In this document: positions 1,937 to 60,613 of the stretch, piece after piece
How positions within the stretch are numbered: the first letter of the stretch is position 1
How the letters are laid out: each line of letters opens with the position of its first letter
Source of the DNA: a virus
DNA length: 64,000 nucleotides
Direction: 5' to 3' (one strand)
UHGV virus genome: UHGV-0033546
The notes under the pieces: generated by a model
Database searches by the model: none
Told to the model about the DNA's origin: nothing
The model's input: the letters and a program-made list of their open reading frames with translations, nothing else
Position numbers and translations under genes: made by a program

Positions 1937-2568
1937 TCAACTACCTCAATATCATAAACTCTAAATGTTCCAAATGAATCGTGTAATTTTTCTTTTGAAA
2001 TAGAAGTTATTTTATACTTTCCAATTGGAACCATCCATTCTTGTTCATGTACAATCATCATTAAGTTATCAGTACGTTCTGAATCTAATCCATCAGTATC
2101 TTCATATGTATACTTGAACTCAGTATTTGGAGAAGAAAGTATAATATCGCTGATATGGTCAGAGTAATTAAAAGCTTTATCAGTTTTTAAGCGAAATATT
2201 ATTTCAGTGAAATATTCAGCATAAGAAAAAGAGCATGCTGTATGCAAACTAGTAGTAAATGAATCTACTCTATTCGTTGAAAACACTTCTCCAACTTGCA
2301 AATCTTTAATGAGTTCTTTTGTCGATTTTGATATACCACGATATAGCTGATAAGGTGATTTAGTTAAATGCTTTTTAACGATTTTATTCAACTGCCGATG
2401 AAGAGCTTCATTCTTTTTGGCTTCCATACATTGCCAAAGAATTGACTGTTCAAAGTCAGTAAATTTTTCACAGACCTTTTTATACATATCATATTGAAAA
2501 TCGACGCTTTCAGCTTTTATAGATAACTGTTCAACATCTGCAGGATTAATAATCATGATAGCCTCCAT
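1933..2568 (-). CDS. modB: ADP-ribosyltransferase ModB-like
   Basis: 211 aa paralog of adjacent ART: YRGIS, STN, EQEWMVP motifs. Confidence 0.6.
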   Translation of the reverse strand: MEAIMIINPADVEQLSIKAESVDFQYDMYKKVCEKFTDFEQSILWQCMEAKKNEALHRQLNKIVKKHLTKSPYQLYRGISKSTKELIKDLQVGEVFSTNRVDSFTTSLHTACSFSYAEYFTEIIFRLKTDKAFNYSDHISDIILSSPNTEFKYTYEDTDGLDSERTDNLMMIVHEQEWMVPIGKYKITSISKEKLHDSFGTFRVYDIEVVE

Positions 2569-2623
2569 ATACTTCAGAAGCTATCATATCATCGTTAGGA
2601 AGGAAAGTAAACAACTTTTTGAA

Positions 2624-2806
2624 TTATTTTGCCCAGGGAGCCCAGGGCGGAGGGTCAAGATGGTATGAAGCTAGTTCTTCTAGAAGAGCATCTGGGGCTT
2701 CAATTCCATAATTCTGTAATACTATACGGTACTCTTTCTTATAATCACTAGAATCATTCTGGATATTCGTAGAATGATTATCTTCTAACATCTCAAATAA
2801 ATCCAT
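2624..2806 (-). CDS. hypothetical protein
   Basis: 60-aa acidic ORF(-). Confidence 0.45.
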   Translation of the reverse strand: MDLFEMLEDNHSTNIQNDSSDYKKEYRIVLQNYGIEAPDALLEELASYHLDPPPWAPWAK

Positions 2807-5622: not shown

Positions 5623-5823
5623 ATGGTACAAAAATTAATGGCACTTGTCAATGCCATAAAAGGTAATAAAAAGCGTATAGCTTTTACTATTTCTGCTATG
5701 GTAGGAATTTTACTCTGGAACTTTATTTTATCGCCAATTGCTATTGCTCATGGCGTCAATATTCCAGTAGTTACTCTTGATACATTCGTAGATTTAGCAT
5801 TTGCTTTAGTTGGGCTAATTTAA
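5623..5823 (+). CDS. hypothetical small membrane protein on opposite strand (66 aa)
   Basis: plus ORF in 56-61 intergenic gap; AAGGAGG 4 nt before ATG; two hydrophobic segments; SD overlaps minus promoter, so could be fortuitous. Confidence 0.3.
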   Translation: MVQKLMALVNAIKGNKKRIAFTISAMVGILLWNFILSPIAIAHGVNIPVVTLDTFVDLAFALVGLI

Positions 5824-6848
5824 ATTTTGGCATATTTAGATAGCCGCATTTTAGCCATTAACCCCTGGGCAATATTATTTTTCATATATTCCATAATTTG
5901 TTCAGGGGTTGCACCTTCCTTTCTAATCATATCATTAACATCTTTTGATTTCCAGGGAGATTTATCCCAGAACATAACCCTTTCTCCTGCATTGACTAAT
6001 TTAGTCATTCGCTTAATAGTGTCAGGATGACGAGGTTCATTATCTAAGACCCACACACGTCTATCTTTAAATGGAACAATTTCTAGGTCTAATTGACCAC
6101 CCGTAATAGCTATACCATTTTCAATAAAAAGTGAATCTATAGGTCCTTCTAGAACATATACATCACCATCTTTAACTCGTTCGACTCCATATATTTTTGT
6201 TGCCTCAGGATAAGCTTTAATGGTGATATATTTTTGAGGAGCATCTTTCTTTAATGCACGTCCTTGAAAAGACTCAGCTTTTCCATTAGCATTATAAATT
6301 GGAATAACAAGACGAGGCTCAGAAATTTCCTTTTTGTATGTTCCTGGTGCTATACTATTAACCAATTTTGGCCATTCAGTTGTAAACCAAAGATATTTCC
6401 ATTTATCCTTTGGAATACAACGAGCTTTTACGTATTTTATAATTGGATGGTCTTCCGCCAGTTTATCTAATCTAACACATGACGGAAGAGATTTAATTAT
6501 TTTCTTCTCAGGCTGTTTAGGAAGTTCTTTAGGTTTTTCTACTGGACGACTTTTACCTTTTTCTTTTCTTATTTCAAAGATATACTCGCGATATAAATCA
6601 GGTTCAAACTCCTTTAAATATATTCCGATTGGTGCATGATAGTTACAGTTATAACAATGAATATTTCCTTCATTATTATCGCCATAATACCATCCACGGG
6701 CTTTATTTTGATCGGTTTTTGAATCTCCACAAACAGGGCATCTAAACCGCAATTTAAAAGTTGAACTATTATTTACTTGTGTGAATTTAGGTAAATGAGC
6801 CAATGCACGGTATGCAAACTCATTATCAATCCAAGGTATTGATGACAT
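5820..6848 (-). CDS. 61: DNA primase gp61
   Basis: 342 aa; zinc ribbon CPVCGDS...CYNCNYH; TOPRIM-like region. Confidence 0.9.
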   Translation of the reverse strand: MSSIPWIDNEFAYRALAHLPKFTQVNNSSTFKLRFRCPVCGDSKTDQNKARGWYYGDNNEGNIHCYNCNYHAPIGIYLKEFEPDLYREYIFEIRKEKGKSRPVEKPKELPKQPEKKIIKSLPSCVRLDKLAEDHPIIKYVKARCIPKDKWKYLWFTTEWPKLVNSIAPGTYKKEISEPRLVIPIYNANGKAESFQGRALKKDAPQKYITIKAYPEATKIYGVERVKDGDVYVLEGPIDSLFIENGIAITGGQLDLEIVPFKDRRVWVLDNEPRHPDTIKRMTKLVNAGERVMFWDKSPWKSKDVNDMIRKEGATPEQIMEYMKNNIAQGLMAKMRLSKYAKI

Positions 6849-6850
6849 TT

Positions 6851-7015
6851 TTACTCTTCTTTTTCTTTAGATTCCTCTTTTTTCTTTTTAGGAATCTGTT
6901 CAGGACCTTTATTTACTACAGCACCTGACGTTGTTCCAGTAGAGATATTTTCAGGATTACCACCTGAATCTCCAGCTACCATATCTTCTTTAATAAATTC
7001 TTTATATGTTTTCAT
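6851..7015 (-). CDS. hypothetical small protein (61.1 position) with capsid-targeting-like N-terminus
   Basis: 54 aa MKTYKEFIKEDMVAG...; ATG 1 nt after upstream stop; stop 2 nt before gene 61 ATG. Confidence 0.5.
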   Translation of the reverse strand: MKTYKEFIKEDMVAGDSGGNPENISTGTTSGAVVNKGPEQIPKKKKEESKEKEE

Positions 7016-7016
7016 A

Positions 7017-7373
7017 TTAACCTCTATTCATAAAAGCATTAAAAATTTGGTCATCAATCGATGGAATAGCAACTTTTTCTGCATCATTTAGCAAATCATT
7101 AATTTCATCAGATAGCATAACACATGTACCTTTATTTCCTGTAATTGTTACTGCACAATTACGAACGTTTTCTTTATCAAATTTTAGGTTAATATTTTCG
7201 TAGTGAAAATCCTTTAATGCCGAATATATTTTTAAAATGAAATTGTCTTTTACTACAATAAACCCAACCTCGCTATTAAAACGTGGTTCATGGAAGCTGT
7301 AATAAATCTTTTCATCTATGAAATCGTATGAAATTTTTTCCAATTTTAAATATGAAAATTCAGAACTATACAT
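7017..7373 (-). CDS. hypothetical protein (61.2 position; possible AdfA-like anti-DarT factor by position only)
   Basis: 118-aa ORF(-). Confidence 0.5.
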   Translation of the reverse strand: MYSSEFSYLKLEKISYDFIDEKIYYSFHEPRFNSEVGFIVVKDNFILKIYSALKDFHYENINLKFDKENVRNCAVTITGNKGTCVMLSDEINDLLNDAEKVAIPSIDDQIFNAFMNRG

Positions 7374-7385
7374 ACTAACCTCTAA

Positions 7386-7679
7386 TTATTCACCTACCAC
7401 TTCAGCGATGATATTTTTATTATTAAAGTTTTTATCGCAATACAGAACATAATTATATTGCATTACACCACCAGATTTAAGCTGTTTTTGCACTTCAGCT
7501 TTCATTTCAGGACGATCACGCTCAACGATATTCATAATATCTGCTTCAATTTGAGTTTCAACTTCAGTCTGATCCGCAGTCATAGACCATTCGCACAAAT
7601 CTTTATCATAACCTGCCATGGCAGGCTGAGCAGCACAAGAAGATAAAGCAAAAATTGCAGCAAAGATAAATTTTTTCAT
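7386..7679 (-). CDS. sp: periplasmic spackle protein Sp (superinfection exclusion)
   Basis: 97 aa with signal peptide MKKFIFAAIFALSSCAAQPAMA; size and position match T4 sp (61.3). Confidence 0.65.
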   Translation of the reverse strand: MKKFIFAAIFALSSCAAQPAMAGYDKDLCEWSMTADQTEVETQIEADIMNIVERDRPEMKAEVQKQLKSGGVMQYNYVLYCDKNFNNKNIIAEVVGE

Positions 7680-7996: not shown

Positions 7997-8179
7997 TTAT
8001 CCTCGGCAATCCACTTCACATACTTTCTTGCCATCAATGAAAGCTTTAACTAATGCTTTATTAACTTCAGCATATTGAGTAGTAGCCCATTGAACGTCAT
8101 CTTTCATCATTGTGATTTCTTTAGTAAACATGCTTTCGTTCTTAAACCACCCCATAAAAACTACCTTTACCAATTCCAT
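7997..8179 (-). CDS. dmd: Dmd-like antitoxin (discriminator of mRNA degradation)
   Basis: 60 aa MELVKVVFMGWF...; size and position next to gene 41 as T4 dmd (61.5). Confidence 0.6.
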   Translation of the reverse strand: MELVKVVFMGWFKNESMFTKEITMMKDDVQWATTQYAEVNKALVKAFIDGKKVCEVDCRG

Positions 8180-8208: not shown

Positions 8209-8238
8209 ACTATACCATAATCTTGTCAGCTTGTAAAC
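8209..8238 (-). promoter_or_regulatory. T4-type early promoter
   Basis: minus strand GTTTACA, 18 nt, TGG-TATAGT, overlapping 3' end of gene 41. Confidence 0.55.
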
Positions 8239-9665
8239 TAAAATTTTAATTCATTTGCCAAAGCATCTAACTGAGCTCGAGCGGATTCGTTTCTTTGATA
8301 GCGGTTCTGTTCAGCTTGAATCTGCTGTGAACCTGCTACTTCGTTCACTTCGGTTGGAGTAGAATCTTGTTCAATTTCTACCCATTTCTGATTTCCTTTT
8401 TGAACACCCATCAAAAACTTATTCCATTTATTCTTATCACCATATCGTGATTTGATTTGCTTAATGAGTTGTTGTTCAGCAGCTGCTAACTCTTCAGTTT
8501 CAATGACCGCAAGCATAAAATCGGCTGTCGCTGGAAGACCAGCAGATTCTGCTATATCACTCATGTTAACATCAGAAGAGTCCCAAGCTTGTTTACCAAC
8601 CTGCGCTGCAGTCCAAAGAACAGTTTCAGTTTCAACAGCCAGAGCACGTAATTCCTCTGCAATAGCTTTAACAGTTGTGTAACTATTTTCTGAATAAACT
8701 CGGATGCGGCACGATTTACAAATACCTAGATAGTCGACAATAATGATTGTTGGAACAAAATTCTTCTTGAGCTTCAATTCATTCAAGAGAGACCTGAATG
8801 TGTTAGCATCTGCTCCACCAGTAGGATACTGTTTAACAATTAAACGACCGAGAGTAGATTTCTCACGCCATTTTTCCATTTTTCCTTTATACTCAGCGTA
8901 AGAAATATGCCCATCATCAATGTCATCAAGAGAAACATCAAGCATATTAGCATCAATGCGCTTAGCACAGACTTCTTCTGCCATTTCCATGGAAATGTAA
9001 AGAACATTATGTCCAAGCTGCAAATAATCTGCTGCTAATGAACACAATCCTAATGACTTACCAACGTTAACACCAGCCATTAAAACGTTCAGTGTTCCAG
9101 TCTCAGCTCCGCCTTTAGTAATTTTATTCAGAATTTTGAGTCTAAATGGAACCTTACGAGCTTTATTCATATAAGATAGCCAACGTGCTTCGTAGTCATC
9201 CATCCAATCATGGCCAACGTAGCTATCAAATGAAATTGATAATGCTTGACGCATGATGTCAGGAATAGCACCTACATCTGGCATTTTCTTATTTCGTTTT
9301 TCCGGAGGAAGCTCAGCATTGGTTTGAATTTCAATTATTTTAGACGTAGCATTAAACATCGCCCTTTGCTGAACATATTTTTCTGTTTCTTTTACTAACC
9401 AACTGTGGTCTTCCGGAGAATCAGCTAGTTTTGAAATAAGTGTTTTTACACCAGAATATTCTGTTTCAGTAAATGAACTATTTTCTAATGCAACATTTAA
9501 CGCATTAATAGATGGAACGCTATGGTACTCATTGACATGAGATTTAATTAATTTGAATGTATTTTTAGCTGGACCACTTTCAAAATATTCTGAATCCATA
9601 TATGGCCAAACTTTTGAAAAATAAGCTTGATCAAATATGAGATGAGAAAGAATAATTTCTACCAC
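8238..9665 (-). CDS. 41: replicative DNA helicase gp41
   Basis: 475 aa; DnaB-family Walker A GVNVGKS; matches recalled T4 gp41. Confidence 0.9.
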   Translation of the reverse strand: MVEIILSHLIFDQAYFSKVWPYMDSEYFESGPAKNTFKLIKSHVNEYHSVPSINALNVALENSSFTETEYSGVKTLISKLADSPEDHSWLVKETEKYVQQRAMFNATSKIIEIQTNAELPPEKRNKKMPDVGAIPDIMRQALSISFDSYVGHDWMDDYEARWLSYMNKARKVPFRLKILNKITKGGAETGTLNVLMAGVNVGKSLGLCSLAADYLQLGHNVLYISMEMAEEVCAKRIDANMLDVSLDDIDDGHISYAEYKGKMEKWREKSTLGRLIVKQYPTGGADANTFRSLLNELKLKKNFVPTIIIVDYLGICKSCRIRVYSENSYTTVKAIAEELRALAVETETVLWTAAQVGKQAWDSSDVNMSDIAESAGLPATADFMLAVIETEELAAAEQQLIKQIKSRYGDKNKWNKFLMGVQKGNQKWVEIEQDSTPTEVNEVAGSQQIQAEQNRYQRNESARAQLDALANELKF

Positions 9666-18545: not shown

Positions 18546-19232
18546 TTAAAAATCATGGGTAGAATCAGCTTCAAGAGCTACTACATAATTCGCGTGTTCA
18601 CCTTCAAATTTAGCAGCACCTTGTTTACCTTTTGCCCAGAGCAGAAGTTTATAATTTCCTGGTTGCATTTTCATATTTGCCATATTGATAATGAAATTAA
18701 ATGTATTTTCACCATCATAATCACCAAGATTCAAAGAATATTTAACACGGGTCAGAGCAGAATCTTCTACTTTATTAAAACCGTTAATTACGATTTTACC
18801 TTCTTTTACCGTGATAGCAATTGTATCAATTTGCAGACCACGAGATACACGCAACAGTTGTTGAAGGTCTTCAGCTTTAATTTCAGTAACAACAGATGCT
18901 ACCGGGAATGGAATTGGTTTATTAGGAGCAACTACTGTACTCGGATCGGCTGCTGGCCAAAAAATTGTTGAACGAGCATCAGCAATTTTAATATTTCCAT
19001 CTTCTGATTGGGAAATTTCTGCATCATCATTAACTAGGGACAGAATACCGAGAAAACCGTTCAAATCGTAAATTGCTACATCAAAATCAATAGTGTCAGA
19101 AATATTTGCTTCCGCATAAGTTGTACCATTAACTGCGCGAGTCATAATAAATTGACCAGATTTAAGCATAATACCGGAGTTAATAGTAGCGAAATTTTTC
19201 AAAATATTCAGTGTGTCTTTAGATAATTTCAT
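18546..19232 (-). CDS. 45: sliding clamp gp45
   Basis: 228 aa nearly identical to recalled T4 gp45. Confidence 0.95.
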   Translation of the reverse strand: MKLSKDTLNILKNFATINSGIMLKSGQFIMTRAVNGTTYAEANISDTIDFDVAIYDLNGFLGILSLVNDDAEISQSEDGNIKIADARSTIFWPAADPSTVVAPNKPIPFPVASVVTEIKAEDLQQLLRVSRGLQIDTIAITVKEGKIVINGFNKVEDSALTRVKYSLNLGDYDGENTFNFIINMANMKMQPGNYKLLLWAKGKQGAAKFEGEHANYVVALEADSTHDF

Positions 19233-52077: not shown

Positions 52078-52551
52078 TTATTTAAATGATTTGACGTACT
52101 GAACAGAACCTTTGCTATTCACGAAAGCGATTTTACCATTTTTGTTATACATGGTAGCAGTACGCTGATAGCCATAAGTTTGCTTACCAGATTGATAACC
52201 AACTAATGCAAAATTATCTTCGCCCATTTTATTCTGTTTAGCACGAATACGCTCATGACCGTGAGCCATAAGAACCTTAGCATCGCCAGTTGCAATGGAT
52301 CTACGAGTTTTTTCATCTTCAACTGTATTAACAAAGTCGTCAAATGAATCAAATTTAGCATGAGATTTATTATACAGTTTTCCATCTACTGCATAATTAT
52401 ATCCCTGTACATCCATCTCAACTTCTGTACCATCATCCAATACAGCAGTGATTTTTTGACCTTTTTTAAATTTCAAAAGATCAGTAAAAGATTCAGCAAT
52501 AATTTGAGAATTAATAGCTGCTTCAGTGATAAATTCTTGATATGTTTTCAT
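52078..52551 (-). CDS. internal (capsid-packaged) protein
   Basis: 157 aa; N-terminal capsid-targeting sequence MKTYQEFITEA; ip locus next to denV/e. Confidence 0.6.
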   Translation of the reverse strand: MKTYQEFITEAAINSQIIAESFTDLLKFKKGQKITAVLDDGTEVEMDVQGYNYAVDGKLYNKSHAKFDSFDDFVNTVEDEKTRRSIATGDAKVLMAHGHERIRAKQNKMGEDNFALVGYQSGKQTYGYQRTATMYNKNGKIAFVNSKGSVQYVKSFK

Positions 52552-57027: not shown

Positions 57028-57501
57028 TTATTTGATTTGTTTAGCAGACCAAATGCGGTCTTTAATAATTTTTTGGATGTCTTCAACATACTCTAGGTCA
57101 TGAGCATGTGGATTATCTTTAAAACTATGAGCTCGCGCAAGTTTCTGGCCTTCGGTCTTAATTACCAAAAGTTCTTTAAGGATAGCTTCATATTTAGAGA
57201 TAATTCCTTTAACAATATTTTTCTCTTGTGCGGCTTTAGGATCTGCTTTAGGAGCAGGTTTACCCGAAGCCTTTGCAAAAGCAGCTCCAGTAGCAACTAG
57301 ACTTTTCCAGGCCATACTAACCGCATTTCCCGTAAATCCTTCTGCTTTCATGTCGCGAGCAAATTGGAATCGTGATTCGTCAGAAGCATCTTTATAAGAA
57401 TATTTACCCGCTGCAATGGCTGCTTTTGCAACAGCTTGAATTTCGGTGCTAGATGCTTCATTTAACACCGCTTCATTTAAAAATTGAGTATATGATTTCA
57501 T
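57028..57501 (-). CDS. internal (capsid-packaged) protein
   Basis: 157 aa; capsid-targeting-like N-terminus MKSYTQFLNEA; Ala/Lys-rich; flanked by duplicated terminators. Confidence 0.6.
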   Translation of the reverse strand: MKSYTQFLNEAVLNEASSTEIQAVAKAAIAAGKYSYKDASDESRFQFARDMKAEGFTGNAVSMAWKSLVATGAAFAKASGKPAPKADPKAAQEKNIVKGIISKYEAILKELLVIKTEGQKLARAHSFKDNPHAHDLEYVEDIQKIIKDRIWSAKQIK

Positions 57502-60325: not shown

Positions 60326-60613
60326 TTACAAAAGATTTTTAGCAATAATCTTGAGATGTGCTGCAGAAATGTGTTTAGCTTTAAACAACGCAGTTTCTTC
60401 AGCAGGAGAGATAACGATTGTAGCACCATCCTTTTTAGCAGACCACCCATCACCTAGGTAAACAGTACCTTTGATTTCTTCGCCATCAACCAGACTAATC
60501 ATTGGTTTACCTTCTCGTCCTTTATTTGCTTTAATAACTTCAGAAGTAAGAGTAGCCTCGGTAATGGTAGAAACCGGGGTAGTTGTAGAAGTAAATTCTT
60601 TGAAAGTTTTCAT
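60326..60613 (-). CDS. internal protein I-like (capsid-packaged)
   Basis: 95 aa; capsid-targeting-like N-terminus MKTFKEFTS; position upstream of 57B/57A as T4 ipI. Confidence 0.55.
   Translation of the reverse strand: MKTFKEFTSTTTPVSTITEATLTSEVIKANKGREGKPMISLVDGEEIKGTVYLGDGWSAKKDGATIVISPAEETALFKAKHISAAHLKIIAKNLL

Follow-up and report, generated by a model that had tools for sequence, protein, structure and literature searches.

[quoted passage not shown] The reading I favour, as a real possibility that I would stop short of calling probable, is that gp61.1 would act as a disordered mimic of this gp23 junction, recruited to the prohead core and cut there by gp21.

The window, i.e. the whole stretch of DNA analysed, is 64,000 nucleotides long. 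Megablast of positions 6700-7400 matched 510 records of phages, with 95-99% identity in 504; nearly all come from Tequatrovirus, and in them the matching gene is labelled 'gp61.1 hypothetical protein'; the T4 gene itself lies at 18966-19130. The profile phrog_1823 covers residues 1-54 (E=7e-34), and phrog_2086, which represents a longer form of the protein, matches at E=2.6e-16. The 54-aa ATG ORF (MKTYKEFIKEDMVAGDSGGNPENISTGTTSGAVVNKGPEQIPKKKKEESKEKEE) is present as first described, with the strand now added: it is read from the minus strand, and the plus-strand frame of the same interval is riddled with stops. It is a real gene, since it is annotated as 61.1 in T4 and hundreds of relatives, is found by tblastn (E ≤ 1) in 1486 records of phages, among them RB69, RB16 and phages that infect Klebsiella, Acinetobacter, Aeromonas, Vibrio, Morganella and Serratia, and evolves at a pN/pS of 0.16 in its core and 0.27 in its leader, with pS at 0.6-0.97 and synonymous sites thus near saturation. 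Searching 1.84 billion cluster representatives with a profile recovered 51 clusters (50% identity) of 50-251 aa with the motif. Lack of conservation in related phages had been named as what would speak against the original prediction; the gene proved strongly conserved and under purifying selection.

The gene is indeed translationally sandwiched, as had been proposed. The 61.2 stop ends 1 nt ahead of its ATG, its own stop lies 2 nt ahead of the primase ATG, and it has a GAGG Shine-Dalgarno sequence of its own (Table 1). Its last codons, GAAGAG, double as the purine-rich stretch before the primase ATG.

Table 1. Gene 61.1, its parts and neighbours, and internal-protein-like genes elsewhere in the window.
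Feature	Coordinates	Strand	Basis
Gene 61.1 ORF, 54 codons + TAA stop (6851-6853)	6851..7015	-	phrog_1823, T4 annotation, pN/pS
CTS-like leader MKTYKEFIKE, codons 1-10; pairs with gp23 P9-P1 (QAFGSFLTE)	6986..7015	-	CTS identity, key positions, [LI]xE
Copy of gp23 66-93 (N-fist), codons 11-38, DMVAGDSGGNPENISTGTTSGAVVNKGP	6902..6985	-	BLASTP, HMM, PDB, shuffles
Charged tail with conserved Lys/Arg patch, codons 39-54, EQIPKKKKEESKEKEE	6854..6901	-	A1 conservation, basic tails in relatives
GAGG Shine-Dalgarno of 61.1, within 3' end of gene 61.2 (...aatagaggttaatATG)	7021..7024	-	sequence context
Gene 61, DNA primase; ATG 2 nt past 61.1 stop	5820..6848	-	universal downstream neighbour of 61.1 family
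Gene 61.2 variant, 118 aa, upstream neighbour	7017..7373	-	related to C-terminal half of T4 61.2 = AdfA
Spackle (sp)	7386..7679	-	neighbour
61.4	between dmd and spackle in neighbour list	-	neighbour
dmd	7997..8179	-	neighbour
Helicase 41	8238..9665	-	neighbour
Internal virion protein, 157 aa, canonical CTS (MKTYQEFITE↓A), phrog_3155	52078..52551	-	CTS 9/10, PHROG
157-aa ORF, MKSYTQFLNE↓AVLNE↓A, phrog_2280 (PHROG without functional annotation)	57028..57501	-	CTS-like leader, L/I-x-E ending at residues 10 and 15
IPI homolog, 95 aa, MKTFKEFTSTTTPVSTITE↓A, phrog_4363	60326..60613	-	PHROG, leader

The published capsid-targeting sequence (CTS) of the T4 internal proteins (IPs) is MKTYQEFIAE. Proteins fused to it are packaged, and it is widely used to package foreign proteins; by suppression mapping, targeting depends mainly on positions 4 and 7, and processing on 8 and 10, and gp21 cuts after Glu in L/I-X-E. 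The original prediction held that the N-terminus of the 54-aa protein mimics this signal, and the closeness of the two sequences is borne out: MKTYKEFIKE is identical to the CTS at 8/10 positions, far above chance among window ORFs, with mismatches at positions 5 and 9 only. Comparison with IP N-termini and the gp21 consensus, suggested at the time as a check, gave a match at all four mapped positions (Y4, F7, I8 and E10) and a single [LI]xE in the whole protein, I8-K9-E10, which ends at residue 10. Among the window's 813 ATG ORFs with 30 aa or more, identity to the CTS reaches 8/10 or more only in 61.1 and in the gene at 52078..52551; two further IP-like genes follow at 5/10, and the remainder stand at 4/10 or below. 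The gene at 52078..52551, cited in the prediction as the model for the signal, does start with MKTYQEFITEA and encodes an internal virion protein (phrog_3155, E=1e-101). T4 gp61.1 begins MKTFKEF, and its first seven residues are the same as those of IPI, with F4 in both.

The claim of mimicry thus stands as far as the key positions and the L/I-X-E site are concerned, but it has to be modified in that the leader is also the start of a longer homology to gp23. Directly past the predicted cut stands an acidic residue, D or E in most family members; the gp21 sites verified here have Ala at that place, both in gp23 and at the Glu-Ala bond of gp22. At the DNA level the first 7 codons of 61.1 are identical to those of ip genes at 17-20/21 nt and the upstream 40 nt at only 12-15/40. 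Recent recombination with an ip gene was rejected as the origin of the leader, the upstream DNA being at background identity; the codon identity arises because the amino acids are the same and codon bias is AT-rich.

The alignment of gp61.1 2-38 with T4 gp23 57-93 has 16/37 identities (43%; BLASTP E=1e-8). An HMM of the 61.1 family matches the gp23 proteins of three phages, T4, RB69 and RB16, with E-values of ~1e-10 to 1e-11 and low bias, the matched stretch in each case being residues ~57-101. When run on 2036 six-frame ORFs from the window and the head-gene clusters of three phages, it scored only 61.1 and gp23, and among all PDB sequences gp23 is the sole match to gp61.1 (E=1.4e-5). The Smith-Waterman score is 80, compared with 29 ± 4.4 in 5000 shuffles (maximum 55; z = 11.7). 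An artefact of Gly/Ser/Thr-rich composition is rejected by the shuffles, the low HMM bias and the fact that gp23 alone is matched among both the ORFs and the PDB sequences.

The register is what gives this homology its interest. The gp23 cut, LTE65↓A66, falls exactly on IKE10↓D11 of gp61.1; gp23 maturation removes 65 residues, and mature gp23* chains in the PDB start AEIGGD, which places the cut after E65. The N-fist comprises the unusual 25 N-terminal residues of gp23* (gp23 66-90). In the unexpanded head gp23 66-105 is disordered and lies inside the shell, probably touching the gp22 core, and on expansion it moves outside, makes inter-capsomer contacts and helps form the Soc site; the gp23 head-length mutations A66D, A94V and G97S map to this segment. 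The pattern F..F(I/L).E…(A/G)GD.G…NI..G.(T/S)SGA(V/I)…GP is common to gp61.1 and gp23, and the most conserved residues of the gp61.1 family are those held in common with gp23. Before the cut, aromatic-x-x-Phe/Leu-Ile/Leu/Val-x-Glu is common to gp23 P7-P1 (FGSFLTE), the IP CTS (YQEFIAE) and short-form 61.1 leaders (YKEFIKE). Placed without gaps along gp23, the CTS itself fits best at residue 57 (rank 1/513), if by a narrow margin (15 vs 14).

Similarity is limited to gp23 57-93/101. The HK97-fold A/P domains are absent from the 54-aa protein, and it gives no Pfam Gp23 match. Because gp61.1 has no HK97 body it cannot be a shell subunit, and the label 'major capsid protein' on 61.1 is wrong. Many 61.1 proteins of 51-166 aa are called 'major capsid (domain-containing) protein' in GenBank and UniRef, and one is called 'methyltransferase'; these errors spread from the short gp23-like motif, which is genuine.

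Does gp61.1 track the gp23 of its own phage? Across four phage pairs, with the Aeromonas phage 65 pair and the Vibrio pair left out of the comparison, identity was 16-19/46 within a pair and 15-21/46 across phages, and only one column (V/I) co-varied with the cognate gp23. Neither concerted evolution with the cognate gp23 nor ongoing mimicry of it is supported in these four pairs, and the relation between 61.1 and gp23 is best read as an old partial duplication under shared constraint rather than as ongoing gene conversion.

The family has short and long forms. Long forms include those of RB16 (163 aa), Acinetobacter phage Apostate (158 aa), Vibrio phage PVA23 (159 aa) and Aeromonas phage 65 (121 aa), and their layout, typically of ~155 aa, runs from a ~100-aa helical N-domain through a linker and a hydrophobic-x-Glu junction to the core and a basic tail. 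The long-form core is the same as that of the short form, (D/E/A)(M/V)VAGD(S/A)GG…NIASG.TTGA..N.GP. T4-type phages have the C-terminal module only, with a 10-residue leader where the N-domain would be. The hydrophobic-x-Glu junction is kept in 34/37 short and 94/103 long members, and a second (L/I/V)(T/S/N)E occurs 9-40 residues upstream of it in 43 of 71 de-replicated long forms. Short forms from diverse sources, which are without the ~100-aa N-domain, carry aromatic-x-x-[F/Y/L/W/M]-hydrophobic in the leader in 24 of 37 cases, as in MKSFTEFV…, MKNFNIFYEE-MVAGD and MIKFKDFVES-MVAGD; one, MRLMKTFNEFLKEAE-VSGDSGG, nearly reproduces gp23 FLTEAE-IGGDHGY. The F-x-x-F or aromatic-x-x-F leader pattern was absent in the long forms compared. 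Basic tails are found in all long and short forms, some of them more basic than the tail here. The N-domain occurs elsewhere almost only in 61.1-like proteins of 145-187 aa, and it may do in long forms the targeting job that a CTS-type leader does in short forms. Such a swap would explain the family-wide junction, the selection on the leader and the convergence of the leader on the IP/gp23 pattern where the N-domain is missing.

Several members depart from these two layouts. In the RB69 reference (NC_004928 17317-17783; 2199..2665 of locus L003) the long form is split into two overlapping ORFs, ORF032c corresponding to phrog_2086 positions 1-52 and '61.1' to positions 64-155; in two metagenomic contigs of RB69-like type, L024 and L025, the gene is unbroken and encodes 155 aa, and the split is either an isolate frameshift or a sequencing error. 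In three proteins of 149-251 aa (P0116, P0132 and P0137) the basic tail is followed by another CTS-like stretch (M.E..FKQFVE.LEADK) and by a further domain of ~100 aa; this extension could represent a downstream gene, fused or reached by read-through, that brings a targeting-like leader of its own. Among remote relatives, P0181 and P0184 keep the N-domain and have the gp23-like module swapped for an unrelated C-terminal domain, and P0183, P0185 and P0188 combine the N-domain with a degenerate Gly-rich module, ANNVGGGKVAGLGVGPQGEP, and a basic tail. The P0188 gene belongs to a replication module with ThyX and RNR, and a T4-type primase follows ~2 kb downstream of it (the remote relatives are found at loci L034-L036).

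gp61.1 is probably a small intrinsically disordered protein. AF2 models the short form, with low confidence, mostly as coil (pLDDT 61, pTM 0.19), a short helix over residues 4-11 being weakly predicted; for the long form it predicts a disordered gp23-like module and tail (pLDDT <50), with residues 1-70 of the N-domain helical (pLDDT 80-89). The short-form alignment has 16 invariant columns, and in the tail K44 is invariant and K45 nearly so within the A1 group. The predicted mature 44-mer has, as read from the sequence, 7 Lys against 9 Asp+Glu and is net acidic despite its KKKK patch. Searches of Pfam and NCBIfam with 61.1 were empty, and the long-form N-domain has no fold analogue in the PDB and matches only family members in BFVD. 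For mass spectrometry, EDMVAGDSGGNPENIS(T/I)GTTSGAVVNK is the tryptic peptide of uncleaved gp61.1, and DMVAGDSGG…VVNK is the semi-tryptic form expected after a cut at Glu10.

Gene 61.1 lies upstream of the primase gene and on the same strand at 26/26 loci, with a gap of 2-125 nt in 23 loci and an insertion of 214-757 nt in three; in a remote relative of marine origin the distance to the primase downstream is ~2 kb, and that primase is only 36% identical. The same conserved early cluster holds gene 40, a head-vertex assembly factor, and because gene 40 is embedded there a head function for 61.1 is compatible with replication synteny. The T4 61.1 transcript is classed as 'early', as are those of ipII and ipIII. 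There is no exact late-promoter box (TATAAATA) between gene 41 and 61.1, and of the window's three IP-like genes two also have no exact late box nearby. No late promoter of its own was found for 61.1, as the near-match TATGAATA at -17 leaves too little distance to the ATG to serve it, and a scan for sigma-70-type promoters near 61.1 gave nothing above shuffles. A 2010 review of the core and quasicore genome of T4-related phages never mentions 61.1 in its main text, probably an omission due to the small size and variable length of the gene, and a literature search that covered the more recent papers found none on gp61.1 function or on its presence in proheads or virions.

Other genes of the window merit separate mention. 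The 118-aa 61.2 product is 35% identical to residues 109-208 of T4 61.2 (AdfA, an anti-DarTG1 protein), with the last 14 residues identical, and the N-terminal half of AdfA is missing; because that half is absent, anti-DarT activity may differ in UHGV-0033546. Downstream of denV the window encodes a single 157-aa internal protein where T4 has ipII and ipIII. The ORF at 57028..57501, which falls in a PHROG without functional annotation and has an exact late box 48 nt upstream, is plausibly an additional unannotated internal head protein.

How might gp61.1 work? As a free-standing copy of gp23 57-93, i.e. propeptide junction plus N-fist, with a lysine-rich tail, it would join the prohead core through the contacts that the gp23 segment makes inside the shell against the scaffolding core. 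In T4-type phages these contacts would be reinforced by a leader that follows the logic of the IP CTS (aromatic-x-x-Phe-Ile/Leu-x-Glu). gp21 would then cut after Glu10 (IKE↓D) to leave a 44-residue peptide, which could remain on the DNA by way of its basic patch, bind at N-fist sites or exit the head. The key CTS residues, the gp23 homology with its register at E65, the family-wide junction and purifying selection are shown; that the protein goes to the core, that gp21 cuts it and what then becomes of the peptide I infer. A more specific version, with gp61.1 filling vacant N-fist sites at the gp24 vertices, was rated low; the N-terminus of gp24* is reported to make those contacts.

Several observations count against recruitment to the prohead core. 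gp61.1 is absent from the core-component lists in two recent reviews or papers and from the supplements of one further study, and the T4 protein was undetected in a published whole-cell time-course proteome. The missing late box upstream of 61.1 and the acidic residue in place of Ala after the predicted cut are not what this reading would lead one to expect; nor are the long forms without F-x-x-F or a 44-mer that is acidic, unlike the basic IPs. Finally, it leaves the invariant linkage to the primase unexplained.

Two alternatives place gp61.1 outside the head. It could be a cytoplasmic decoy, made early, that mimics the nascent N-terminal region of gp23, occupies a host or phage factor by which this region is recognised and so protects or times capsid production, its targets being perhaps EF-Tu/Lit-type abortive-infection sensors, chaperonin delivery, or premature gp21 or gp22 contacts. 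I consider this unlikely, if deserving of attention: the transcript class fits, dmd, sp and 61.2 (adfA), all counter-defence genes, are among its T4-type neighbours, the product is peptide-like and disordered, and Gol, the determinant that sets off Lit, is located in the first quarter of gp23, ~100 aa of which bind EF-Tu more stably than the 29-residue Gol core. Counter-defence genes are usually patchy in distribution. The 61.1 family, however, is conserved from enteric phages to distant Vibrio, Aeromonas and Acinetobacter phages whose 61.1 surroundings lack dmd, sp and adfA; the alignment to gp23 stops near 93-101, so that most of the Gol core, which I take to be approximately gp23 93-122, is not copied; and a decoy would not explain the conserved protease-type junction or the CTS-like leader. 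An accessory role in replication, as a DNA-binding or loading cofactor of the primase or primosome acting through the basic tail and the long-form N-domain, would make the gp23 likeness an accident of duplication. Its place upstream of the primase at every one of the 26 loci and in the remote marine relative, tight packing with gene 61 and the conserved basic tail are what one would expect of such a cofactor, but I think it improbable: the empty Pfam, NCBIfam and PDB fold searches give no likeness to known replication proteins, the most conserved residues are the gp23-like ones, the protease-type junction is conserved, and synteny is weak evidence in a cluster that also contains head-vertex gene 40.

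The remaining alternatives concern what becomes of the peptide, or deny it a role. IPI acts against GmrSD after injection, and gp61.1, with a CTS-like leader and one cleavage site, the layout of the IPs, might likewise be a classical injected internal protein, in line with the original prediction of a virion-injected protein, its 44-mer retained in the filled head through a lysine patch that could bind DNA and acting in the next host. This too seems to me improbable. IPs are variable, basic and encoded in plastic loci, gp61.1 is conserved, linked to the replication genes and, in this phage, net acidic once cut; the capsomer openings of 14-17 A by which scaffold fragments escape could also let out a disordered peptide of 4.6 kDa, and gp61.1 is absent from published lists of head contents. 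At the other extreme, 61.1 might have no function as a protein and serve as a spacer or translational-coupling leader for the primase, its likeness to the CTS and gp23 being fortuitous. The very short, low-complexity, disordered product, the 2-nt spacing and the use of the last codons as a purine-rich pre-ATG stretch would suit this, and it is already strongly disfavoured by pN/pS of 0.16-0.27 with saturated synonymous sites, the 51 clusters, the shuffle z of 11.7 and the 16 invariant columns.

Protein sorting into the T4 scaffolding core is still called 'mysterious'. The single gp61.1 alignment joins the leader of the IPs to the cleavage junction of gp23 and to its N-fist, and it suggests that the CTS works by imitating gp23's own core-docking and cleavage segment. 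A bolder form of this idea, which I rate as rather unlikely, makes the CTS of the T4 IPs a mimic or descendant of the gp23 junction, with gp61.1 as the linking form: a 'free N-fist', conserved in all T4-like phages sampled from enteric, Acinetobacter, Aeromonas and Vibrio hosts, that would dock on the core or protease site used by gp23, be cut in the same register and take part in maturation of the head, perhaps as a competitor for N-fist or scaffold-contact sites or by filling them. If true, the receptor logic for sorting into the T4 prohead would be identified. gp61.1 offers a 54-residue natural substrate for testing CTS imitation, so that the question of the CTS receptor becomes testable. 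The analysis also flags a gene conserved from coliphages to vibriophages and corrects a widespread mislabel; and should gp61.1 prove to be a decoy or a partner of the primase that works outside the head, it would be no less unexpected to meet a peptide module derived from the capsid in the replication cluster.

Among known systems, the prohead-core proteins gp67 and gp68 resemble gp61.1 in being small and are thought to act in head assembly and to be processed at L/I-x-E, but they are encoded in the late head operon and have no sequence similarity to it, the HMM finding only gp23 in the head clusters of three phages. The Gol peptide, which triggers the e14 Lit protein via EF-Tu, is likewise a short piece from the first quarter of gp23, and one with an activity of its own; the segment copied in gp61.1 ends about where I take Gol to begin, which would make it at most a mimic of the flank. 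In the way it would work, gp61.1 comes nearest to the CTS-bearing prohead proteins: with IPI, IPII and IPIII it shares the leader M-K-T-(Y/F)-x-E-F…, with positions 4/7/8/10 kept and one L/I-x-E closing it. Unlike these proteins, which are described as 'highly basic', its mature part is predicted to be a disordered gp23-homologous peptide, net acidic in this phage, and not a folded, variable basic effector, and the gene is conserved across Straboviridae and adjacent to the primase rather than placed in the plastic ip loci. A further likeness is to gp23 itself. gp61.1 is without the first 56 propeptide residues and the HK97-fold body and has gained a lysine-rich tail, but it shares with the gp23 junction (…FGSFLTE65↓A66) and N-fist an ungapped homology of 37 residues in exact cleavage register.
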